A stretch of DNA of 10,385 nt from the NCBI GenBank assembly GCA_031364845.1, contig JANLWX010000187.1, positions 1 to 10,385 of the forward strand, written 5' to 3'. This DNA is from Candidatus Eiseniibacteriota bacterium. Its GTDB lineage: Bacteria > Eisenbacteria > RBG-16-71-46. The notes beneath the pieces were generated by a model, which was given only the letters and a program-made list of their open reading frames with translations, searched no databases and was not told the DNA's origin. Positions 1 through 10,385 of the stretch are shown piece by piece. The first letter of the stretch is position 1; each line of letters begins with the position of its first letter. The translations under genes were made by a program, and so were the position numbers.

Positions 1-41
1 TTCAATCCCATCCGGCCGAGACCGACGATGCCGAGTTTCAT
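1..41 (-). CDS. gnd: 5' end (partial) of an NAD(P)-binding dehydrogenase, probably decarboxylating 6-phosphogluconate dehydrogenase
   Basis: Not in the ORF track. The reverse complement of 41..1 reads ATG AAA CTC GGC ATC GTC GGT CTC GGC CGG ATG GGA TTG = MKLGIVGLGRMGL, a Rossmann GxGxxG motif matching the GLGRMG start of Gnd/GntZ-type enzymes. An AGGAG RBS (48-52) lies 6 nt upstream. Only 13 codons are visible, so a related beta-hydroxyacid dehydrogenase cannot be excluded. Confidence 0.6.
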   Translation of the reverse strand, partial: MKLGIVGLGRMGL

Positions 42-147
42 TTCGCGCTCCTGTGGGTGCCTGCGGCGAACGAACATCATCCGCCGCGGAACTTAGCCCG
101 ACACTACTTGGAGCGCCAGCCGGGAGACGGTTACGCAACGAAGCGCA

Positions 148-177
148 ACGGCCACCCTCGCGAACGAAGGTGGCCGT
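148..177 (-). terminator. Stem-loop (terminator or 3' stabiliser) downstream of the secreted-protein gene
   Basis: Minus strand reads ACGGCCACC-U-UCG-[UUCG]-CGA-G-GGUGGCCGU: a 13-bp stem with a UUCG tetraloop. The one irregular pair is a U.G wobble only in the minus orientation. It starts 24 nt after the stop codon. The downstream U-tract is weak (UGCGCUUCGUUG). Confidence 0.7.
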
Positions 178-201
178 CGGTGAAGCCCAGGTTTGCGGCT
201 T

Positions 202-933
202 CTAGCGGTACAGACTCTTGATGCTTCCCCACGTCGCCGTGCGCGTCGGGGTGGCGAGCGGACAGCCGGGGGGGCCATTCACGGGCGTTTGCCAGGTCGT
301 GTAGCTGCGATTCGCCGGGTTCACGATGTCGGGATCGTTCTGCGCTTCCAGCGGCTGGAACAGCTGGATGTCGTTGAGCACGATGCACGCCGAGTTCGCA
401 CAGCCGGTGCACGAGCCCACGCCGGTCGTCTTCGCCCGCAGGAGACTGACCTTGTAGGCGTAGTACTCGGTGCTCGCATCGACGGGACCCTTCTGATCCA
501 CTGGAATCGCGGCCTGGATGCGCAGGCGCGCACGCGCCAGGGTTCCGAAGCCGACATCATACGCATAGCCGCCGGCACCCTGTCCCGCAAAGAAATCGAC
601 GCACATGAACGGACCGGCCGTGAAGTCGAAGCCGATCGAAATGCCCGTGGTCCCACGACACTGTCCGCTGCCGTGCTTCCACCAGTCGGGTAGGCTGGGC
701 TGATCCGTGAAGATGTCGATCTGAGATGCGAGGCCCAGATACTCGTTGACTCCCGTGGGAGGAATAAACGAGGCGACGAGGACGTTGAGGCCTGAATTCG
801 AATTGCAGGCGAACGTCGAATTCTGGGTCCCGTTCACTCCACAGTCGGTCCAGGAGAGGTTGATTCCGGCGGCGGACGCGATCGACGCCGTCAACATCAG
901 CGCGGCCGCGAGGGTTGCAATGCGTGTCTTCAC
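202..933 (-). CDS. Secreted Cys-rich hypothetical protein (243 aa) with C-terminal TWGSIKSLYR motif
   Basis: Start reassigned from 1158 to GTG at 933, which has a GGAGGT RBS (941-946) 7 nt upstream. It is followed by a Sec signal peptide MKTRIATLAAALMLTASIASA|AG. The mature part is beta-rich with 8 Cys and ends GCPLATPTRTATWGSIKSLYR*. Third codon positions are strongly GC-biased. Confidence 0.9.
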   Translation of the reverse strand: MKTRIATLAAALMLTASIASAAGINLSWTDCGVNGTQNSTFACNSNSGLNVLVASFIPPTGVNEYLGLASQIDIFTDQPSLPDWWKHGSGQCRGTTGISIGFDFTAGPFMCVDFFAGQGAGGYAYDVGFGTLARARLRIQAAIPVDQKGPVDASTEYYAYKVSLLRAKTTGVGSCTGCANSACIVLNDIQLFQPLEAQNDPDIVNPANRSYTTWQTPVNGPPGCPLATPTRTATWGSIKSLYR

Positions 934-993
934 TGGGGGGACCTCCGGATTGAAAAGCGGGGGGAACTGAACACAAGGCGCGGCACGCGCGAA

Positions 994-1002
994 ATAGTAG
1001 CA
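994..1002 (-). promoter_or_regulatory. Candidate extended -10 (TGnTAnnAT) sigma70-type promoter for the secreted protein
   Basis: Minus strand TG-C-TACTAT, about 60 nt upstream of the GTG start, in a locally AT-richer patch. There is no good -35 element at 17 bp. Confidence 0.45.
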
Positions 1003-1135
1003 CGGGCTTTTGCGAACGGACCCGCGCAATCGTTGACCGCACGCGTAATTCCCGGGTTGATGCGCGGGATGGCGGTCCGACGGACCTCGAGATCGGCCAA
1101 GGGCTCGGAATTTCTGCCCGACGTTTTGCGTCACC

Positions 1136-1156
1136 AAACAGCGGGGCCTGACCCGC
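1136..1156 (-). terminator. Weak hairpin after the hybrid kinase gene
   Basis: Minus strand GCGGG-UCAGGC-CCCGC followed by UGUUU, about 28 nt after the TAA stop. The stem is only 5 bp. Confidence 0.3.
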
Positions 1157-1183
1157 AATGATCCGCGGATCGATTCGGACGTC

Positions 1184-4100
1184 TTACGCGACCCGGCGGC
1201 CGCCGCGGAATCCGATCGTGAGCAGATGGTCCTCGATTTTGCGCGACTCGCGGCGCGCAGCGTCCATCAACTCGTTCAGCCCATCGGTGCGATCCTCGTG
1301 CGCGAGCCGCTCGATCTCCATGAACACCGCGGCACATCCGATCGCGCCGATGGTCGCCGCCATCCCGCGCAGCCCGTGCGCTTCGTGTTCGAGCTTGCGC
1401 GAAGCGTGATTCAGGATCGCAAGGTCCATGCGATCGAGCCGCGGGTTGAGATCGTTCATGAAGGTGTTGAGCAGCGCTTCGCGAAGCGCGGGAATTCCCA
1501 TGCTGGCGTCGTCGAGCCGTTTGACGTCGAGGACGCTCGGGTCGTTGCCGAGTGCGCCGAACACGCCGCGATCGGGAGCCTTCTCGAGAATGAAGCCCTC
1601 GCTCTCCCCGCTCCCGGCGGCCGGCTCGGCCGAGACGGGCGCAATCGCACTGCGCGACGGCGTGATCTCGATGTCCGAATCGGAAACCAGTTCGATGCCC
1701 GGATCTCCGGTTCCGTCGGAACCGGCCTGGACGGGCTGCTGTTCGCCTTTGACCAGCGACAGACGAGGTGGATTCTGCGGCCGCGAGGGCATCGCGAATT
1801 CATCCTCGGCGGCCAGCGACAGCGGACGGTCGGTTTCGTCGTCGCCCGCATCGAGCGTCGGCGCCAGCATCGGAACCCGGCGCACTCCGGATACCGGCTG
1901 CGGAACATGCGTCGGCTCGGGAGGCGGCACGATCATGGATGCGATCGAAGCTTTCACCTCGGCGGAGTCGTCCACGACCACGGCTGGCGCATCCTCGGCT
2001 GCCGGCGCCCCATCTCCCGCGCCGGTCGTCGCCGTGGAGCGGCGATCGTGGGCGGTCCAGCGCTCGACGACTTCGCACAGCTCCGCGAGATCCAGCGGCT
2101 TCGAAAGATAGTCGTCCATTCCGGCGGCCAGACAGCGCGCGCGATCGCCGGGCATGATCTTGCCCGTAACCGCGATCACCGGCGTGCGGTGTCCGCTCTG
2201 CTGCTCGCGGGCGCGGATCGACTGCACGACTTTGTAGCCGTCCACGTCGGGCAACGCGATGTCGAGCAGGATCAGGTCGGGACGCTGCAGATCGAACAAC
2301 TCGAATGCGCGGGACGCGGTGCCGGCGCGTTCGGTCGTGTACCCGTGACGGCGCAGCGTCCAGTCGGTCACCAGCTGGTTCACCGGATCATCGTCGACCA
2401 GCAGGATGCGCACCCGGTTGCGGCGCGATTCGGCGATCGAGTGGCGGGTGACGAGCGAGGCCTGGGTCCCGGCCGGGACTTGCACCACTTCAGTGAGCGC
2501 ATCGTAGAGCTCGGTCCACTCGATCGGCTTGATGAGGTACGCCGAGAAACCGAGGCCCTGCACGCGCGCCGCATCACCGCGCCGTCCGACGCTCGTGAGC
2601 AGCATGGTGCGTGTGTCCTTGAGCTCGGGGATCTGGTTCATCCGGCCGCCGAGCTGCTCGCCGTTCGTCCCCGGCAGTTCCATGTCGATGATCGCGACCT
2701 GGTAGGGGTCCTTGTCGGCGTGCGCGCAGCTCATGCGCTCCAGCGCTTCATCGGCGTTCGAGGCTTCGTCGGCGCGGCTGCCCCAGGCGCCCAGCATCTC
2801 GACCACCGCATGGCGCGCGGCGCGCGATCCGTCGACGACCATCACGCGCAACCCGCGCAGGCGCACGGTCGGCGTCTCGGACATCGAGGTGACTTCGGGC
2901 TGCTTCACGATCTTCATGCGGAACCACGGCGTCGTGCCGGTGGCGGAGTCGCTGTCGACGCCGATCTCGCCGTGCAACAGCGTCACGAGCTGGCGCGCGA
3001 CCGCGAGGCCGAGGCCGTCGGCACCGTGCTTGCGCGCGATCGCGGCATCGCTGCGCACGAACGCCTCGAACATGTTGAGCATGTGGTCATCGGAAGCGCC
3101 GGCGCCGCTTCCGTTGACCCGGAACACGAGCGACACCTGTTCCTCGTTCTCATCGATGCGATCGATCGTCAGCTTCACGTCGCCGCCGTCGGTGCAGCGC
3201 ATCGCCGTGCGCATCACGTTCAGCAGAATCTGCCGCAGGCGTCCGGCGTCGCCGCGCAGGCGCGAAGGGACTTCGTGATGCACCTGGCAGCTGAACGCGA
3301 GGTTGCGTTCGCGCGCGATCGGCATCAGCACGGCATGCACTTCGTTGACGGTCACGCGCAGATCGAAGTCGACTTCCTCGATCTCGAGCTTGCCGGCTTC
3401 GAGCCGCGAGAAGTCGAGCGAGTTGTTGATGAGCGCGAGCAGCGCGTGCGCCGAATGCCGGATGATCTCGACCCAGCTGCGCTGCTGCGCATCGAGCCCG
3501 GTGTCGAGCAGCAGATGGGACATGCCGATCACGCCGTTCATCGGCGTGCGGATCTCGTGGCTCAGCGTCGACAGGAATTCGGTCCACTCGGTGCCGCGGG
3601 CCTGGGCGGATTCGAGCAGGCGCTCGAGCGCCGCAATGCGATGTTCGAGCTCCGGGACGTTCGCATCGCCGCCGCCGGGCGTCGTCTCCGCGCGCAGGCG
3701 CGCGATCTCGGGCTGCAGTGCCTCGATCTCCGAACGCGCGATGTCCCGCTCGGCCTGCGCGGCAATCGCGCGGGAGTGGGCGAGTTTCGTTTCGGCGTGC
3801 GCGGCCTCGGCGTCGCGCACCGCCCGGGCGAGATCCTCCTCGAGGGCGGTGATGCGCTGCTCCACCTTGCTCTTCTTGAGCCCGGCGAGCTCCCGCGCGG
3901 TTGCTTCGAGCTGATCGCGCAACTCCTCGGCGATCGCGTTGGCGGCCGCCTCGTTCACCGCGCTCGTCTCGGCGCGCATGTCGGCGGCGGTGCGCTCTTT
4001 GAGCGCCGCGTCGCGCGCCTGCATCATCTCGGTGCGCGACTGGCTTTCGTCGGCGCGCGCCGCCGCGGCGGCGGCCAGCAGTTGTGAGGCCGCCAGACGC

Positions 4101-4927
4101 TCGTCCTGCGCCTTCTGCTTTACCGTTTCGACTTCGGCCTTCGCCTGGTGCACCTGCTGTTCGGTCGCTTCGATCTCTGACTGCGCCGCTGCGATGCGCG
4201 CGCGACTCTCATCCAGCTCGCGGCGCAGCGGCTCGATCGAATCCGCCGCTTCGCGCGCCTGCGCTCGCGACTGCTCGAGTGCAGCCGTCAGATCCGAAAT
4301 GCGTGTCTCGAGCTCGAACACCCGGACATTCGCCTCGGCAACCGCCTGGGCGCGTATCTCGGACATTGCCCGCTCATCGATGCGATGCTCACGTTGCCCC
4401 AACCCATCCTCACCCGAAGCGACCGGCGCGCCTGTTGCCATCATCCCGCTCGCGCCAGACATTGAGGGGACGCCCTTGCCGTATGCCGGGTGGACTAGAC
4501 CCGGAGCCGGACCAGACGCGCCGTGCGCTTCGCGCATCACACCCACGAACACGCGGTCGCCGTCGACGCGCTCGATCAGCCGCACGCGGGCCACCACGTT
4601 CATCTCGGATCCATCCTCGCGCACGAGCGTGACGCAACATTCGCGTGGCGCGGAATCATTGCTGCGTCTCATGCGCGCGAAGTCGCGCATCAGGCGGAAA
4701 CGCTCGTGCGGAGCGATGATCTCGGTGCAGAAGTGGTCGAGCATGTCGCCGGGTTTCTGCGCGGCGAACGACTCGATCGCAGGACTCAGCCAGTTCCACC
4801 GCCCATCGAGGTCACAGCAGAAGATCGCGTCGGGTGACGCGTCGAGCAGCTCTCGCAGGCCGATCGGTGTCGGCGCGAACGTGGACTTGCTGCGGGCCTT
4901 GCTGGACTTCGACGAACGTCCGCTCAT
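1184..4927 (-). CDS. Cytoplasmic hybrid sensor histidine kinase-like protein, 1247 aa (PAS, coiled coil, HisKA, degenerate HATPase, REC, REC, Hpt)
   Basis: Start at ATG 4927 with GAGG 5 nt upstream; the longer 4993 start overlaps a promoter motif. PAS: LRELLDASPDAIFCCDLDGRW...FVGVMRE. H-box: FLSTLSHEIRTPMNGVIGM (His codon 3557-3559). HATPase: RLRQILLN...GLGLAVARQLV..LHGEIGVDS. REC1: VMVVDGS..IIDMELP..LLTS..YLIKP. REC2: LLVDDD..ILLDIALPDVDG..IAVTG..DDYLSKP. Hpt: EAHGLRGMAATIGA (His codon 1376-1378). No transmembrane segment. Confidence 0.95.
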   Translation of the reverse strand: MSGRSSKSSKARSKSTFAPTPIGLRELLDASPDAIFCCDLDGRWNWLSPAIESFAAQKPGDMLDHFCTEIIAPHERFRLMRDFARMRRSNDSAPRECCVTLVREDGSEMNVVARVRLIERVDGDRVFVGVMREAHGASGPAPGLVHPAYGKGVPSMSGASGMMATGAPVASGEDGLGQREHRIDERAMSEIRAQAVAEANVRVFELETRISDLTAALEQSRAQAREAADSIEPLRRELDESRARIAAAQSEIEATEQQVHQAKAEVETVKQKAQDERLAASQLLAAAAAARADESQSRTEMMQARDAALKERTAADMRAETSAVNEAAANAIAEELRDQLEATARELAGLKKSKVEQRITALEEDLARAVRDAEAAHAETKLAHSRAIAAQAERDIARSEIEALQPEIARLRAETTPGGGDANVPELEHRIAALERLLESAQARGTEWTEFLSTLSHEIRTPMNGVIGMSHLLLDTGLDAQQRSWVEIIRHSAHALLALINNSLDFSRLEAGKLEIEEVDFDLRVTVNEVHAVLMPIARERNLAFSCQVHHEVPSRLRGDAGRLRQILLNVMRTAMRCTDGGDVKLTIDRIDENEEQVSLVFRVNGSGAGASDDHMLNMFEAFVRSDAAIARKHGADGLGLAVARQLVTLLHGEIGVDSDSATGTTPWFRMKIVKQPEVTSMSETPTVRLRGLRVMVVDGSRAARHAVVEMLGAWGSRADEASNADEALERMSCAHADKDPYQVAIIDMELPGTNGEQLGGRMNQIPELKDTRTMLLTSVGRRGDAARVQGLGFSAYLIKPIEWTELYDALTEVVQVPAGTQASLVTRHSIAESRRNRVRILLVDDDPVNQLVTDWTLRRHGYTTERAGTASRAFELFDLQRPDLILLDIALPDVDGYKVVQSIRAREQQSGHRTPVIAVTGKIMPGDRARCLAAGMDDYLSKPLDLAELCEVVERWTAHDRRSTATTGAGDGAPAAEDAPAVVVDDSAEVKASIASMIVPPPEPTHVPQPVSGVRRVPMLAPTLDAGDDETDRPLSLAAEDEFAMPSRPQNPPRLSLVKGEQQPVQAGSDGTGDPGIELVSDSDIEITPSRSAIAPVSAEPAAGSGESEGFILEKAPDRGVFGALGNDPSVLDVKRLDDASMGIPALREALLNTFMNDLNPRLDRMDLAILNHASRKLEHEAHGLRGMAATIGAIGCAAVFMEIERLAHEDRTDGLNELMDAARRESRKIEDHLLTIGFRGGRRVA

Positions 4928-4983
4928 GGAAACCTCGCCAGGGACAATCGAGCATGCCGGCGCGGTGGCGCCATCTCGGGGTG

Positions 4984-5012
4984 CTATCGGCATTTGCCGC
5001 CCCCGGCTTGAG
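4984..5012 (-). promoter_or_regulatory. sigma28 (FliA/WhiG)-like promoter for the hybrid kinase gene
   Basis: Minus strand CTCAAG-N15-GCCGATAG, against the sigma28 consensus of TAAA/TCAAG at -35 and GCCGATAA at -10. It is intergenic, correctly oriented and 56 nt upstream of ATG 4927. Confidence 0.7.
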
Positions 5013-5065
5013 CACGGTAGCGGGCCGCGACGGCCGGCGGCGCCATCGGGGCGAAAGGCCCACCG

Positions 5066-6721
5066 TCATGGGCTCCGAGTGGGACCGGACCGCGCGCTGC
5101 GCCGCGTGAGCGCCGGCGGAAGCATGGCGCGCACCAGGTCGGCATCCGCCCGGCCCACGGCTCCCATCAGCACCAGCGTCACGACATAGACGAATACTCC
5201 CACGCATCCGCTGATCACCATCCCCGAAGCGCCTCCGGGCGAGACCGGAGCGAGTGCCGCCATCGCGAGCGCGGCGGCGATGCCGGCCGCAAGCGGCGCC
5301 CGGATCGCGCGCGCCAGTCCGGTCCCGGGCACCGTACGGCGGAACGTCGCGAACATCAGCGCGAAGCACACCAGTTCGCTCGCGACCGTGGCGGCGGCGG
5401 CGCCCAGAATCGACCAGCGCGGGATCAGGATCAGGTTGAGCGCGACGTTGAACGCCGCCGTGATCGCGACCGCGCGCGCGGTGTGGATCTGGCGGCGCTG
5501 GGCGGCGAGCAGGTGAAGCAGTGTATCGAGCATGAACGCCGCGGGCAGCGCCCACATGAGGATCGCGAGCGCGGGCGCGGCGTCCGCGTACGCGGGACCC
5601 AGCAGCACCTCGACGATGCGCCGCGATTCGACCGTGACCAGCACCGCGACGCCGACGGTGAAGATGAGCTGAACGCGGAACGACTTCCGGCACAGGACTC
5701 CGAGGGCTTCGGGCGGGCCGTCGGCGGAGCGCGCCATGATCGGAAACAGCACCGAGCGGTAAGCCGCGGACACCAGCACCAGCGCTTCGAAGAAGCGATA
5801 GACGCTGCCGTAGAGGCCGACCGCCGCCGGACCCTCAAGGACGTTCAACAACACCGAGTCCATGCGAAAGTAGATGGCGATGAACACGCCCGACAGCGCG
5901 AGCGGTGCTGATTCGCGCATCAATGCGAACGGCGAAGTGACCCACTCCGAGAAGGGTGCGGCAGCGTGTGAGCGCGGCGCACCGGTGGCCGTCGCGACGG
6001 TCGCCGCGAGTGCCACATCATCGCTCGCCTCGACCACGAGTGCCGCCGCGACCGCGTCGTCGCGCGACCCCTCGGTCTCGGGCAGCACCGCACGGGGCGC
6101 GGCCGCACCCGGATGCCACAGCGGCCACGACCACGCGAGTGCCGTCGCCAGATGCATGATCGAGCCCGCGAGATACGCGAGTGCCCCCGTCATCACCCCG
6201 GCGCCGAGTCCCAGCATGAGCACGCCGGCCGCAAGGGCCGTCATCCCCTGCGCGACGATCGAGAGCCCCGCCACGCCCGCGCGCCCCGATGCCTTGAGCA
6301 GACACTCGAACATCACGGCCGCCGAGTTGATCAGCATGCCCATCGTGAACACGCCGATCAGTCCGAGTGTGGCGAGCGGGGCACCCGTCAGGGCGGCGAT
6401 CCCGGGAGCGACGATCAACGTCGCCGAGGCGAGCGCGAGCTTGGCGAGCAGCGCGGTGCGCAGCAACGCGGGCACCGCATGCGGCGCACGCGCCGCCTCG
6501 CGCGCGAACACCGTGCACACGCCGAGGTCAGCGATCACGCTGAACAGCAACGTGAAGGACAGTCCGAACATGTGACGTCCGAACTGCTCGACTCCAAGCC
6601 CGCGCGCGAGGACCAGATAGAGCGCGAAGTCGAGCGCCTTACCCGCGAACAGTCCGGTCAAAAGCCGCGCGGTTCCCCGCGCGACGGTGTGCGACGTGCT
6701 CGACGCGCCGTCCCCGCTCAC
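5066..6721 (-). CDS. Wzx-like oligosaccharide flippase (polysaccharide biosynthesis protein, MOP superfamily), 551 aa
   Basis: Highly hydrophobic with many predicted TM helices. Family-typical motifs: LARGLGVEQFG..FSVIADLG, PLALSGVFIAIYFRMDSVLL..AVGLYG..YR, LLGPAYADAAPALAIL and NVALNLILIPRWSILGAAAATVASE. The GTG start overlaps the upstream TGA (GTGA, 6718-6721). Confidence 0.92.
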   Translation of the reverse strand: MSGDGASSTSHTVARGTARLLTGLFAGKALDFALYLVLARGLGVEQFGRHMFGLSFTLLFSVIADLGVCTVFAREAARAPHAVPALLRTALLAKLALASATLIVAPGIAALTGAPLATLGLIGVFTMGMLINSAAVMFECLLKASGRAGVAGLSIVAQGMTALAAGVLMLGLGAGVMTGALAYLAGSIMHLATALAWSWPLWHPGAAAPRAVLPETEGSRDDAVAAALVVEASDDVALAATVATATGAPRSHAAAPFSEWVTSPFALMRESAPLALSGVFIAIYFRMDSVLLNVLEGPAAVGLYGSVYRFFEALVLVSAAYRSVLFPIMARSADGPPEALGVLCRKSFRVQLIFTVGVAVLVTVESRRIVEVLLGPAYADAAPALAILMWALPAAFMLDTLLHLLAAQRRQIHTARAVAITAAFNVALNLILIPRWSILGAAAATVASELVCFALMFATFRRTVPGTGLARAIRAPLAAGIAAALAMAALAPVSPGGASGMVISGCVGVFVYVVTLVLMGAVGRADADLVRAMLPPALTRRSARSGPTRSP

Positions 6722-6987
6722 GCGACGGGCTGGGGCGTGACGGCTTCGGTGGCGTGCGGAGTCTTCGCGGTGCCGGAGGCTTCGGGAACCGCGGGGTGTC
6801 TTGCGGGCGCAGGCGACGATGGCCCCGTCGCCTGCGGCGTCACGTCGGGAACCGCGCGCGTATTACCCGGAGGTTCGGGCGGCGAATCGATCGGAGGCTG
6901 GACGACCGCGATGGACGCCGGATGAAAGTGAGCCAGGCCGCGGCGCAGCATTCCCGTCGGGAAACTCTTCAAAGTATTGCGGGGCAT
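6718..6987 (-). CDS. Small Pro/Ala/Thr-rich hypothetical protein (89 aa), translationally coupled to the flippase
   Basis: ATG 6987 (MPRNTLKSFPTGMLRRGLAHFHP...QPVA*) has a weak GAGAG RBS and lies ~50 nt downstream of a sigma54 motif. Its TGA overlaps the flippase GTG. Codon bias is weaker than in neighbouring genes and I recognise no domain. Confidence 0.45.
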   Translation of the reverse strand: MPRNTLKSFPTGMLRRGLAHFHPASIAVVQPPIDSPPEPPGNTRAVPDVTPQATGPSSPAPARHPAVPEASGTAKTPHATEAVTPQPVA

Positions 6988-7038
6988 GAGGGTGCTCTCG
7001 AAGGATGCAGGGAGATGGAACCGGGACACGCGAGGGAC

Positions 7039-7055
7039 TGCAATGCCTGTGCCGG
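7039..7055 (-). promoter_or_regulatory. sigma54 (RpoN) -24/-12 promoter for the small ORF and flippase
   Basis: Minus strand CCGGCACAGGCATTGCA against the consensus YTGGCACGnnnnTTGCW. It has exact GG-N10-GC spacing with GGCAC and TTGCA intact, and is intergenic and correctly oriented. Confidence 0.7.
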
Positions 7056-7073
7056 ACAGCCGTGCCCGCCTGA

Positions 7074-7089
7074 CGCGGCCAAGGCCGCG
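7074..7089. repeat. Perfect inverted repeat CGCGGCC-AA-GGCCGCG between divergent promoters
   Basis: 7-bp arms with a 2-nt spacer, directly abutting the TTGACT -35 element. It could be an operator, but all-GC arms arise readily by chance in this genome. Confidence 0.3.
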
Positions 7090-7090
7090 G

Positions 7091-7120
7091 TTGACTCCGG
7101 CGCAAACCGCGCTCCATGGT
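7091..7120 (+). promoter_or_regulatory. Candidate sigma70-type promoter giving a leaderless transcript
   Basis: TTGACT (7091-7096)-N18-CATGGT (7115-7120), with the ATG only 6 nt after the -10 element. Confidence 0.5.
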
Positions 7121-7126
7121 GATCGC

Positions 7127-7360
7127 ATGAGCCTGCTCATGCCCCAGAATCGCAACGGCACCGTTCACTCGGTGACGCCGGTCAGCATTCACGGCGACCG
7201 CTACACCGATCTCGTGATTGCACTCGAGGACGCCGACGGCCCGCCGGTCGTGGGACGCGTGGGCGGCGACGAATGCCCGGAGGCTCTGGCCGCGGGCGAA
7301 CGCGTGACCGTCCGCTTCATCATGGGTGTGATGGTCAAGGTGGTCCGCGCGCCGATCTGA
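7127..7360 (+). CDS. Small hypothetical protein (77 aa), predicted beta-barrel or OB-fold-like
   Basis: MSLLMPQNRNGTVHSVTPVSIHGDRYTDLVIALED...LAAGERVTVRFIMGVMVKVVRAPI*. Strong GC3 bias begins at 7127. Alternating hydrophobic beta-strand patterns and a GxxVxV motif are typical of small barrels. The 6977 start in the ORF track crosses two promoter motifs. Confidence 0.8.
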   Translation: MSLLMPQNRNGTVHSVTPVSIHGDRYTDLVIALEDADGPPVVGRVGGDECPEALAAGERVTVRFIMGVMVKVVRAPI

Positions 7361-7405
7361 GTGCCGCCGCGACTCCGCGTCATGTGCTCCCCGGGCTTCG
7401 CGGGA

Positions 7406-7434
7406 CTCACGACGCCGCGGTTGTGCGCCGATAC
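7406..7434 (+). promoter_or_regulatory. sigma28-like promoter for the HDOD gene
   Basis: CTCACG-N15-GCCGATAC, with the same spacing as the motif at 4984-5012. Confidence 0.55.
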
Positions 7435-7471
7435 TCCTCGTCGAGCGCCGGTTCGCCGGCGATGGCCGCCC

Positions 7472-8215
7472 AGGAACGAGAATTCGGACGTCGACGACAT
7501 CGTCCAGGCGATCATGACCGACCCGATGCTCGCGACCCGCATCATGACGCTCGCCAACTCCTCGGCCTACGCCGGCGGTCAGACGCTGCAGGGTCTCAAG
7601 CCTGCGCTGATGCGCATCGGATCGAAGGCCGTGCAGGACATGGTGTTCTCCGAGTCGATCCGCATGAAGATCTTCTCGGTCAAGTCCTACCGGAAGATTC
7701 TCGAGGAATCGTGGAAGCTCTCGCTCGGAACCGCGATCGCCTGCGAGGCGATCTCGAGAGCCACCGGGATCGAGCGCGAAGGCGCGTTCCTGATCGGACT
7801 GCTCCACGACACCGGCAAGCCGGTGCTCGTGAGCGCGATCTCGGAGTACGAGAAGCAGAACAAAGGTCTTCCGATCGGCGAGGACATCGTCGAGATCCTG
7901 ATGTCCCAGCTCCACGAAGAAACCGGATCGTACGTCCTCAAGGACTGGGGCATGCCCGAGTCGGTCGTGACTGCGGCCGGCGGACATCACGTCTATCACG
8001 GTTCGCAGGCGACGCCCGCGCATCGGCTGGTCCATGCCGGCAATCTCATCTGCCAGCATCTGGGAATCGGCGACATCCAGAACGACGTCGACTTCACGGT
8101 CAAGCACGTGTTCGCGGAGCTGAACCTCGCCGAGTTCGAGAAGATCGAACCGATCCTCGAGGCGGTGAGCAGGGACGTCGGAGGCCTGTTGACCGGACTG
8201 GACAGCGCCGCCTAG
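7472..8215 (+). CDS. HDOD-domain protein with missing or frameshifted 5' end (possible pseudogene; first in-frame ATG at 7514)
   Basis: HDOD signatures: SDVDDIVQAIMTDPMLATRIMTLANS, ALMRIG, AFLIGLLHDTGKP, HEETGSYVLKDWGMP and GHH. Family-like sequence and GC3 bias begin abruptly at ~7472. None of the three frames upstream encodes the N-terminal LPxLP helix expected of HDOD domains. Confidence 0.85.
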   Translation, partial: RNENSDVDDIVQAIMTDPMLATRIMTLANSSAYAGGQTLQGLKPALMRIGSKAVQDMVFSESIRMKIFSVKSYRKILEESWKLSLGTAIACEAISRATGIEREGAFLIGLLHDTGKPVLVSAISEYEKQNKGLPIGEDIVEILMSQLHEETGSYVLKDWGMPESVVTAAGGHHVYHGSQATPAHRLVHAGNLICQHLGIGDIQNDVDFTVKHVFAELNLAEFEKIEPILEAVSRDVGGLLTGLDSAA

Positions 8216-8240
8216 GCGGGTCCGCCGTGGTGCTTCAGAC

Positions 8241-8882
8241 TCAGGAGTTCTGCGCGTTCCTGCGCCGGCGTGCGCGCAGGAATTCCACGACGGCGGGCAG
8301 CAGCGAGATGAACACGATCCCGAGCACCACCAGCGAGAAGTGCTCCTTCACGATCGGAATGTTCGCGAAGAAGTAACCCGCCGGAGTGAGCAGCAGCACC
8401 CACAGCAACGCTCCCACCACGTTGAACGCCATGAAGCGCTTGTAGCTCATCGCTCCGATGCCGGCGACAAACGGTGCGAAGGTCCGCACGATCGGGACGA
8501 AGCGCGCGAGAATGATGGTCTTGCCGCCGTAGCGCTCGAAGAATTCGTGCGTCTGATCGATGTGCCGCTGCTGGATCAGCCGTGGAAACCGGCGCACCAG
8601 GCGTTGTCCCGCGAGGTTGCCGATCCAGTAGTTCACCGTGTCGCCGAGAATCGCGGCCACCAGCATCACGAACATCGCGAGGAACAGGTTGAGACGTCCG
8701 TTCACCGCGATCGCCCCGGCCGCGAACAACAACGAGTCGCCCGGCAGGAACGGCGTCACGACGAGTCCGGTTTCGCAGAACACCACCACGAACAGAATGA
8801 CATAGACCCAGGTGCCGTACTCGGTCACGAGGCCGTCGAGGTACGTGTTGAGGTGCAGAGCGATGTCGATCAGGTGTTCCAT
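8241..8882 (-). CDS. dedA: DedA family (SNARE-associated/VTT domain) membrane protein, 213 aa
   Basis: Hallmark motifs ILFVVVFCETGLVVTPFLPGDSLLFAAG, AAILGDTVNYWIG and FFERYGGKTIILARFVPIVRTFAPFVAG, closely matching E. coli DedA-type proteins. Confidence 0.96.
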   Translation of the reverse strand: MEHLIDIALHLNTYLDGLVTEYGTWVYVILFVVVFCETGLVVTPFLPGDSLLFAAGAIAVNGRLNLFLAMFVMLVAAILGDTVNYWIGNLAGQRLVRRFPRLIQQRHIDQTHEFFERYGGKTIILARFVPIVRTFAPFVAGIGAMSYKRFMAFNVVGALLWVLLLTPAGYFFANIPIVKEHFSLVVLGIVFISLLPAVVEFLRARRRRNAQNS

Positions 8883-8968
8883 CGGGGTCAGTCTCTCTCG
8901 GGTGAGTGCGGCCGTGATCGGGCAATGACCGCGGGCAGAGCGGTGAGGGTCAGGGCGAAAGGCGAGGC

Positions 8969-8997
8969 AGAATCACCGACGGCCCCATGCCCGTCAA
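8969..8997 (-). promoter_or_regulatory. Candidate sigma70 promoter for dedA
   Basis: Minus strand TTGACG (8997-8992)-N17-GATTCT (8974-8969), 86 nt upstream of the ATG. Confidence 0.55.
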
Positions 8998-9072
8998 GCG
9001 TTCGCGATTCGAGGCGAACGACGACGACGAACCCCGCGAACGACTCCTCCTGCATCGGCACGTGCGCGGCGC

Positions 9073-9101
9073 TTGGATGAATGGAATCTTCGCGTGATAA
9101 T
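9073..9101 (+). promoter_or_regulatory. Candidate sigma70 promoter for the Ser/Thr kinase
   Basis: TTGGAT (9073-9078)-N17-GATAAT (9096-9101) in an AT-richer patch, divergent from the dedA promoter. Confidence 0.6.
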
Positions 9102-9188
9102 GTGCGGTGCTCGCTGTGAGCGCCTGCCGTAGAGACTGGAAGTGCGCGCCCGTTCTATCGTTCCGACCCTCGCGAGGCCTTCTCCCAG

Positions 9189-10385
9189 ATGGTGTTCTGC
9201 ACGCAGTGCGCGCACGCGATCCCCGAAGGAAGCCGCTTCTGCCCGGCGTGCGGGGCCGCCGTCGCCACGACTCCCGCGATCGACGCCACCGCCGCCATCA
9301 CGCAAACCACCCCCGCGCGGACGGAAACCGCCCGCTCCTCCGCATCCGGCGGATCGAGTGCGGTGCACGGGCGATTCGAACCGGGCACGAGGATCGGCAA
9401 CCGGTACCGCGTCGTCGCGCTGCTCGGGCGCGGCGGCATGGGCGAGGTCTACCGCGCGGACGATCTCGAACTCGGCCAATCGGTCGCGCTCAAGTTCCTG
9501 CCGCGCGCGGTGGCCGGCAATCCGGCCGACCTCGAGCGGTTCCGGGGCGAAGTGCGCGTGGCGCGGCAGATCGCCCATCCGAACGTGTGCCGCGTGTACG
9601 ACATCGGCGAAGCCGACGGGCACGTCTTCCTTTCGATGGAATATATCGACGGCGAGGATCTGGCGTCGGTGCTGCGAAGGATGGGACGCCCCTCGACCGA
9701 CAAGGCGCTCGAGCTCGCGCGCCAGATCTGCCTCGGCCTCGCGGCGGCGCACGAGGCCGGCATGCTGCATCGCGACTTGAAGCCGGCCAACATCATGGTC
9801 GATGGGCGCGGCCGCGCGCGCATCACCGACTTCGGGCTCGCGGGGCTCGCCGATGAGCTGTCGCGCGACGACGCGGTCGCGGGCACACCCGCCTACATGG
9901 CTCCGGAGCAGCTCAGCGGTGGCCGCGTATCGGTGCGCAGCGACATCTACGCGCTCGGCCTCGTGCTCTACGAAATCTTCACCGGCAAGCGCGTGTTCTC
10001 TGCTTCGAGCATCGCCGAGATCCGCCAGATGCATGACTCGGCGTCGGTGACCACGCCTTCGGAACTGGTGCGCGATCTCGATCCCGCAGTGGAACGCATG
10101 ATCGTTCATTGCCTCGAGCGCGATCCGGAATTGCGTCCGCCCTCTGCTTACGCCGTGCTCGGCGCGCTGCCGGGCGGCGACCCGCTCGCGGCCGCGCTGG
10201 CGGCGGGCGAAACACCCTCGCCGGAGCTGGTCGCGAACGCCGGCGATCGCGGGAGCCTCTCTCCGGTGGTGGCGATGGCGTGCGTGGGGGCGGGACTGCT
10301 CGGCATCGCGATGTGGGCCGGCATCATCGGCCCCGATTTTCGGGTGCTGACCCAGCCCACGCAGGTGCTCTCGGTGCGCGCCACC
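9189..10385 (+). CDS. Hanks-type Ser/Thr protein kinase with N-terminal zinc ribbon and a downstream TM helix (3' partial, 399 codons visible)
   Basis: Not in the ORF track because there is no stop in the window. Manual translation from ATG 9189 gives MVFCTQCAHAIPEGSRFCPACG (CxxC-x10-CxxC), LGRGGMGEVY, VALKFL, HPNVCRVYD, HRDLKPANIM, DFGLA, GTPAYMAPE and SDIYALG, then a hydrophobic helix VVAMACVGAGLLGIAMWAGIIG. Confidence 0.96.
   Translation, partial: MVFCTQCAHAIPEGSRFCPACGAAVATTPAIDATAAITQTTPARTETARSSASGGSSAVHGRFEPGTRIGNRYRVVALLGRGGMGEVYRADDLELGQSVALKFLPRAVAGNPADLERFRGEVRVARQIAHPNVCRVYDIGEADGHVFLSMEYIDGEDLASVLRRMGRPSTDKALELARQICLGLAAAHEAGMLHRDLKPANIMVDGRGRARITDFGLAGLADELSRDDAVAGTPAYMAPEQLSGGRVSVRSDIYALGLVLYEIFTGKRVFSASSIAEIRQMHDSASVTTPSELVRDLDPAVERMIVHCLERDPELRPPSAYAVLGALPGGDPLAAALAAGETPSPELVANAGDRGSLSPVVAMACVGAGLLGIAMWAGIIGPDFRVLTQPTQVLSVRAT

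Follow-up and report, generated by a model that had tools for sequence, protein, structure and literature searches.

What is left for a hybrid histidine kinase to do once its contacts for ATP are gone, and from where would it receive phosphate? The question is raised by a gene in a 10,385-nucleotide (nt) stretch of Candidatus Eiseniibacteriota DNA (the window; assembly GCA_031364845.1, contig JANLWX010000187.1, positions 1 to 10,385 of the forward strand). The gene lies on the minus strand at 1184-4927 and is a real, conserved pseudokinase gene whose proposed chemistry has precedents. Its product is suggested, with a probability of roughly 0.5, to act as relay and drain for phosphate that another, putative kinase supplies, rather than as a kinase itself. 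The features of the gene, with residues numbered in amino acids (aa), are the following.

1184..4927, minus strand: whole gene, soluble hybrid (unorthodox) histidine pseudokinase of 1247 aa, from the open reading frame (ORF) and Pfam
4526..4864, minus strand: family-specific PAS domain, about aa 22-134 (Pfam PAS_4)
3593..4363, minus strand: predicted long coiled coil rich in Ala, Glu and Arg, about aa 189-445 (composition and weak coiled-coil Pfam matches)
3386..3583, minus strand: DHp domain (HisKA), aa 449-514 (Pfam E 4e-19)
3545..3559, minus strand: H box with the HExxT phosphatase motif, His457 at 3557-3559 and Thr461 at 3545-3547
2909..3253, minus strand: degenerate CA domain (HATPase_c), aa 559-673, fold retained and ATP contacts gone
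3206..3208, minus strand: N-box Asn replaced by Thr574 (codon ACG)
3110..3112, minus strand: G1 Asp replaced by Gly606 (codon GGA)
3017..3022, minus strand: G2 box Gly-Thr replaced by Ala636-Asp637
2483..2851, minus strand: REC1, read as a pseudo-receiver, Asp748 at 2684-2686 and the metal-binding acid replaced by Gly700 at 2828-2830
2063..2413, minus strand: REC2, canonical receiver with Asp845/Asp846, Asp889 at 2261-2263, Thr921 and Lys943
1217..1537, minus strand: Hpt domain, His1184 at 1376-1378 (Pfam), after a linker of roughly 170 aa with little conservation

An earlier note on this DNA, made from its letters alone, had described the frame as unbroken, and the ORF at 1184-4927(-) is indeed open when counted from the ATG at 4927. 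This start position is supported by the orthologue of genome G001, which begins at the equivalent Met. No hydrophobic window of transmembrane strength was found in the 1247-aa protein (maximum 1.49) and it has no membrane helix. The Pfam profile search returned PAS, HisKA, HATPase_c, two Response_reg stretches and Hpt, giving the domain order PAS, coiled coil, DHp, CA, REC1, REC2, Hpt. The critical codons were confirmed independently by a 980-nt contig that belongs to a different sample of this study and spans 2571-3550 with 0 differences, in a search covering 4/16 listed runs.

Relatives were gathered as the best 120 protein matches plus the best-match loci in genomes of the order and in a few genomes of the wider class, leaving 198 rows after duplicate removal, with two rows of a split G126 gene left out. 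Trees were of the quick and FastTree kind. The CA domain and the scored acceptor columns were excluded from the 198-row tree, which revealed a 164-row orthogroup in Candidatus Eisenbacteria (SH-like approximate likelihood ratio support, SH-aLRT, of 100), in which the PAS domain was matched by BLAST in 138/164 rows versus 0/34 outside rows. The window's gene belongs to a clade of six full sequences with 64-91% identity, from G000 (the genome carrying the gene), P0002, P0003, P0004, G001 and G013. All six lack both the N-box Asn and the G1 Asp and retain the H box, and a seventh, fragmentary sequence is consistent with this in its N and G1 boxes. An incomplete copy grouping with this clade (L158, G119:C202) has both residues intact and an altered G2 loop, making it a possible intermediate in the loss of the pocket. 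A metagenome scan for near relatives gave best matches of 43-44% identity and no clade member, and its loci were reused as controls.

The changes in the ATP pocket reported by the earlier note were borne out on re-reading, including Thr (ACG, 3206-3208) for the N-box Asn, Gly (GGA, 3110-3112) for the G1 Asp and a G2 box reading GADGLGL, and further changes, some of them in the G2/G3 region, were identified as K577R, F578C, G636A, T637D and F667P. Position 574 is Thr, Cys or Ser in 6/6 clade members, position 606 is Gly in 6/6 and Ala in the seventh, fragmentary sequence, and Ala636-Asp637 is invariant in 6/6 while found in <1% of intact orthologues. The comparison was extended to the 48 CA positions with a conservation of 90% or more among 112 intact orthologues, where 28 were retained in all six clade members, 20 were changed in at least one and 11/48 were lost from every member, among them N574, K577, F578, D606, G636 and F667. 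Across DHp, REC1 and REC2, 71/80 such positions were retained and 9/80 changed in at least one member. Nine derived CA residues are invariant across the six sequences and the G1 glycines vary within the clade. The predicted structure is confident (predicted local distance difference test, pLDDT, 89.3; predicted template modelling score, pTM, 0.81) with ShkA, GacS and RetS as best Foldseek matches. Judged from the conserved positions, the loss is concentrated on nucleotide contacts, and in the model the kinase fold stays.

Such losses are rare among other kinases, as the N-box Asn or G1 Asp was replaced in 0/81 CA domains of 80 metagenome loci, 0/119 other short hybrid-kinase matches, 0/34 rows outside the orthogroup and 1/35 other scorable CA domains of G000, so that the observation is not due to chance. 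Among the residues of an active kinase, the H-box His457 is present while the N-box Asn and G1 Asp are not. With both of these gone, autophosphorylation of the protein is very unlikely, as had been proposed. Its kinase fold is retained and its catalytic residues are lost, with the loss conserved under selection, consistent with a pseudo-histidine kinase as a protein without one or more kinase functions (PMC12632262).

Selection on the CA domain was compared using a codon model for the three clade genomes with available DNA, giving ratios of nonsynonymous to synonymous substitution (omega) of 0.095 for CA, 0.077 for REC1, 0.058 for REC2 and 0.036 for DHp. An omega of 1 was rejected for CA (2dlnL 258), which was not different from REC1 (2dlnL 1.9-2.4), and three unsaturated trios of intact orthologues gave 0.048-0.092 for CA and 0.031-0.045 for DHp. 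As absolute CA values are model-dependent (0.095 with F3x4, 0.007 with F61 and 0.41 by simple counting between G000 and G001) and two further intact trios were saturated, reliance is placed solely on the comparison of domains and of sets with each other. It places the CA domain under purifying selection like that of intact orthologues and the gene is therefore not decaying. Identity to G001 is 72% for CA, 71% for REC1, 70% for Hpt and 40% for the linker, and DHp identity is 77-97% in the clade and 91-97% among the four closest relatives. The loss of the N and G1 residues is thus conserved in the clade under purifying selection; canonical boxes in close orthologues together with relaxed selection, named by the earlier note as the mark of a decaying gene, were not found, since the five closest orthologues are non-canonical, selection is not relaxed and only more distant orthologues are canonical. 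In the G013 copy (L022:8015-9180), a frameshift in the coiled-coil region separates the PAS domain from the kinase core; this genome consists of a single contig with a completeness score of 86%, which makes an assembly error a possible cause.

The earlier claim of four intact phospho-acceptors was not supported. The residues His457, Thr461, Asp748, Asp889 and His1184 are all present, but REC1 lacks its metal-binding acid, which leaves three usable acceptors and not four. His457 with the HExxT motif is retained in 6/6 clade members, as is the Hpt, and REC2 retains 29/32 family-conserved positions in all six. REC2 has the acidic pair, Asp, Thr/Ser and Lys of a true receiver, whereas REC1 fails at Gly700, the second acidic residue that contacts the metal directly in receivers (PMC12632262). 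This residue is absent from REC1 in 163/164 orthologues and the acceptor Asp is replaced by Glu, Ser or Gly in 66/164, including 53/112 intact kinases. REC1 is, as judged by these residues, a pseudo-receiver; it aligns with Rec1 of ShkA, whose Asp is likewise present yet unused for phosphotransfer (10.1101/675454), and such pseudo-receivers are reported to be widespread among GacS/BarA-type kinases (PMC7010744).

The same loss has occurred repeatedly across the orthogroup. The N-box Asn or G1 Asp is missing in 42/164 orthologues, and a kinase-dead signature (Asn, Asp, a G1/G2 glycine or the H-box His missing) was identified in 52/164 orthologues versus 1/34 outside rows, dividing the orthogroup into 112 copies predicted to be intact and 52 predicted to be dead. 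The dead rows form 11 separate clades with differing substitutions and require at least 12 changes on the tree; this count of clades is approximate due to the quick trees and long branches. Forcing 21 dead rows together was rejected in a 50-row subset (approximately unbiased test, p-AU 2e-5), and multiple origins of kinase loss are not in doubt. Dead copies occur in 31/85 genomes having a row. Among the 42 orthologues missing the Asn or Asp, the H-box His is lost in 22/42 and retained in 20/42, while the REC2 Asp is retained in 40/42 and the Hpt His in 37/41 scorable sequences; loss of the H-box His generally affects 0.9% of HisKA domains (PMC12632262). Four full-length copies of family f3 (L190, L191, L192 and L019) lack the ATP pocket and the Hpt His, and mostly the H-box His, and are candidate pure scaffolds. 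An intact copy lies beside a degenerate one as a tandem duplicate at L145 (G146:C121). No publication was found on the orthogroup or on repeated kinase loss within one orthogroup, in a search with most subscription journals outside it.

As ATP contacts are lost while REC2, the Hpt His and the H-box motif are under purifying selection, the protein is likely a relay or drain for another kinase. This reading was chosen for the survival of the REC2-Hpt pair, the best preserved part (joined by HExxT in the window's clade), together with the small number of Hpts and the ten Hpt-less hybrid kinases of the genome. Two Hpt matches were obtained in G000, the gene itself and an intact hybrid encoded on C189, compared to ten hybrid kinases in which the C-terminal domain is a receiver and an Hpt match is absent. 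The genomes G013, G014, G006, G142 and G144 each carry a dead copy and gave a single Hpt match, and G013 and G014 contain other hybrid kinases. Phosphate would enter at Hpt His1184, from the receiver of another hybrid kinase or back from a response regulator, or alternatively at REC2 Asp889 from the His of another kinase as in RetS. It may then pass forward to a regulator or be hydrolysed at Asp889 aided by His457 and Thr461. REC1 would be a non-phosphorylated regulatory domain, and PAS input may set the balance between relay and drain. EnvZ N347D is reportedly kinase-minus and phosphatase-plus, and EnvZ is said to have phosphatase activity without its CA domain. N-box mutants of EnvZ lost the kinase and kept the phosphatase activity (PMC3009899).

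One lead to a donor is an Hpt-less hybrid kinase with two receivers (G000:C81:18663-22118), followed by two small receiver proteins (cluster L207:3994-8020), the first of which presumably resembles DivK; a family search gave no such call. The kinase was found in 72/88 other f1 genomes, in 0/10 f3 genomes and, with the same query, in none of f2. The relay is intact in 14/16 dead copies with this kinase versus 5/14 without it (raw Fisher p 0.007), with 8 rows unscorable, one paralogue left out and absences that include incomplete genomes.

Several observations weigh against a relay and drain. Co-evolution with the C81 kinase was not significant on independent pairs (sign test p 0.25-1), and across the orthogroup loci the gene has no conserved response-regulator neighbour. 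In genomes, 11/30 scorable dead copies are also defective in REC2 or Hpt. The G2 Thr is Asp637 here, at a position equivalent, by motif only, to EnvZ Thr402, the mutation of which abolishes phosphatase activity (PMC3009899). The conserved receiver Asp proved dispensable in PsmA (PMC12963549), an N-box Asn-to-Asp change in CaNik1 (N627D) left partial function (PMC3848655), and the clade is defined by just six full sequences of shared ancestry.

The main rival, though rather unlikely, is a phosphorylation-independent scaffold or regulator sensor similar to PsmA or DivL, in which the dimer, PAS and coiled coil would bind or place partners and the acceptor residues would persist structurally or bind a phosphorylated regulator without turnover. 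It would account for the gene being retained even where the H-box His, CA and Hpt His have all changed (family f3), for a PAS-to-His distance of 318-479 aa in five clade members versus a median of 71 in other orthologues, and for the long, little conserved linker, and PsmA is itself a PAS-HK-disordered-REC pseudokinase with a dispensable REC Asp (PMC12963549). However, PsmA has no His, ExxT or Hpt (PMC12963549), all retained in 6/6 members of the window's clade, while the 29/32 REC2 positions are kept and the spacer is poorly conserved (38-68% identity within the clade). A heterodimer is improbable; in it the CA domain of another kinase would phosphorylate His457 in trans for a flow from His457 to Asp889, His1184 and a regulator, or the partner would be blocked as RetS blocks GacS. 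Constraint is strongest in the DHp (omega 0.036; 91-97% identity among the four closest relatives), with His457 in 6/6, and a RetS-GacS DHp complex structure has been solved (PMC8498467), but intact trios show the same degree of DHp constraint (0.031-0.045), the His is lost in 22/42 orthologues missing the Asn or Asp, and close paralogues are absent from G000, where the second-best match had E 4.5e-42.

It is very improbable that the protein is still a kinase whose remodelled pocket takes ATP or another nucleotide in a non-standard manner. The nine derived residues invariant in six members, the retained His457 and fold, and the partly functional CaNik1 N-box mutant (PMC3848655) are set against the loss of both Asn and Asp, the varying G1 glycines, an Asp in the phosphate loop and the essential role of the equivalent Asn, Asp and Gly in CheA (PMC3009899). 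Least probable of all, and already largely refuted, is a decaying gene or sequencing artefact. The frameshift between PAS and DHp in G013, the counting estimate of 0.41 for CA and the loss of the family's usual downstream neighbours would suit decay, but the frame is open in five full-length members of 64-91% identity, omega is far below 1 under every model with CA not different from REC1, and the codons are identical in the independent contig.

A wider proposal, tentative and doubtful as a whole, joins three parts: that the essential job of the orthogroup node never needed its own kinase activity (a single-copy gene in which ATP binding was shed in about 11 lineages, with a graded series of intact, pocket lost, H-box His lost and REC2-Hpt lost), that the clade's pocket was rebuilt as a new ligand or partner site (fixed Arg577, Gly606, His615, Ala636, Asp637 and Pro667), and that the protein serves as the main Hpt for the other hybrid kinases of the genome.

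Kinase-derived non-catalytic proteins such as DivL and ChpT are known, and RetS is membrane-bound. The suggestion that the layout represented an undescribed pseudokinase type does not stand, since RetS and PA14 RcsC have already been described with the very sink, phosphatase and relay roles that were proposed. RetS of Pseudomonas aeruginosa (PDB 6DK7/6DK8/7N0E) has no autophosphorylation, keeps HExxT with T428 as phosphatase residue, uses REC2 as a phosphate sink (PMC5992135) and dephosphorylates GacS (PMC5992135, PMC8498467). It resembles the window's protein in the order DHp, degenerate CA, REC, REC with the motif kept and a functional REC2, but in RetS the N-box Asn and G1 Asp are present, the G2 loop is lost and none of its three sites is an Hpt (PMC5992135), whereas the window's protein loses Asn and Asp, has an Hpt and a PAS domain and is soluble; the two are not orthologous. 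PA14 RcsC is an unorthodox sensor, likely no kinase, that acts in the PvrS-RcsC-RcsB system as ExxT phosphatase and Hpt relay for the Hpt-less hybrid kinase PvrS (PMC3842833). The ExxT motif, receiver and Hpt His of that type are all present here, but the partner kinase and regulator of RcsC are encoded with it, as compared to an orphan gene that has neither adjacent to it and encodes an extra pseudo-receiver.

The best full-span sequence and fold match was ShkA of Caulobacter crescentus (PDB 6QRJ), sharing DHp, CA, a pseudo-receiver with a retained unused Asp and a receiver (10.1101/675454, PMC7010744) and differing as an active kinase without PAS or Hpt. Binding of cyclic di-GMP (c-di-GMP) as in ShkA was unsupported, with 3/6 contacts matched (R324, Y338 and I340); opposite R344, S347 and Q351 stand Glu, Glu and Ala, and the DDR motif is absent. 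BarA/GacS (NF008318; PDB 7Z8N) has the same domain order including a pseudo-receiver between CA and REC, but the NF008318 score was 356 versus a cut-off of 890 bits and the window's protein has no membrane anchor and a lost ATP pocket. PsmA of Streptomyces venezuelae is likewise a PAS-bearing hybrid with a degenerate CA, in which the H-box His, ExxT and Hpt are absent (PMC12963549), all three being present here, and RcsD differs in having no transmitter His (PMC3842833). The window's protein is thus no member of the RetS, BarA/GacS, ShkA or PsmA types, and by analogy likely works like RetS and RcsC.

The gene neighborhood was also compared. A major facilitator superfamily (MFS) transporter and gnd cluster flanks the gene in 59 genomes, with zwf and pgl next in longer loci, and the MFS/gnd/zwf/pgl order (L021:11618-15993 and equivalents) lies downstream of intact and dead copies alike; the cluster is absent beside the gene in G000 and G013. 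Upstream of the kinase gene is a Wzx-like polysaccharide flippase with an Ala-rich insert (5069-6721(-)), also found in G001 and G004 (intact copy). A predicted secreted, Cys-containing protein of 242 aa (205-933(-)) had no Pfam or NCBIfam match and has a 64% orthologue downstream of the G013 kinase. The window further contains a small OB-fold-like protein (7127-7357(+), weak matches) followed by an HDOD-domain protein (7361-8212(+)), a DedA-family protein (8244-8882(-)) and a zinc-ribbon Ser/Thr kinase truncated where the contig stops (9189-10385(+)). Elsewhere in the genome, L214:3217-9109 (G000:C20) encodes a FliA/WhiG-type sigma factor, receiver proteins and a REC-HK, and G000 has no CheA-type Hpt match.

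The new element is the family, a single-copy hybrid kinase in which ATP binding was lost about 11 times, while the known histidine pseudokinases RetS, DivL, PsmA and RcsD are single old end points without a close active twin. The lineage is uncultured, dead or intact status is predicted from sequence and the partners are candidates. About a third of the orthogroup's "sensor kinases" are probably mis-annotated. The losses often separate sister genera, providing natural pairs of predicted intact and dead proteins within one orthogroup, and these matched pairs could show which activity remains after ATP binding is lost and in which order the phospho-sites follow.

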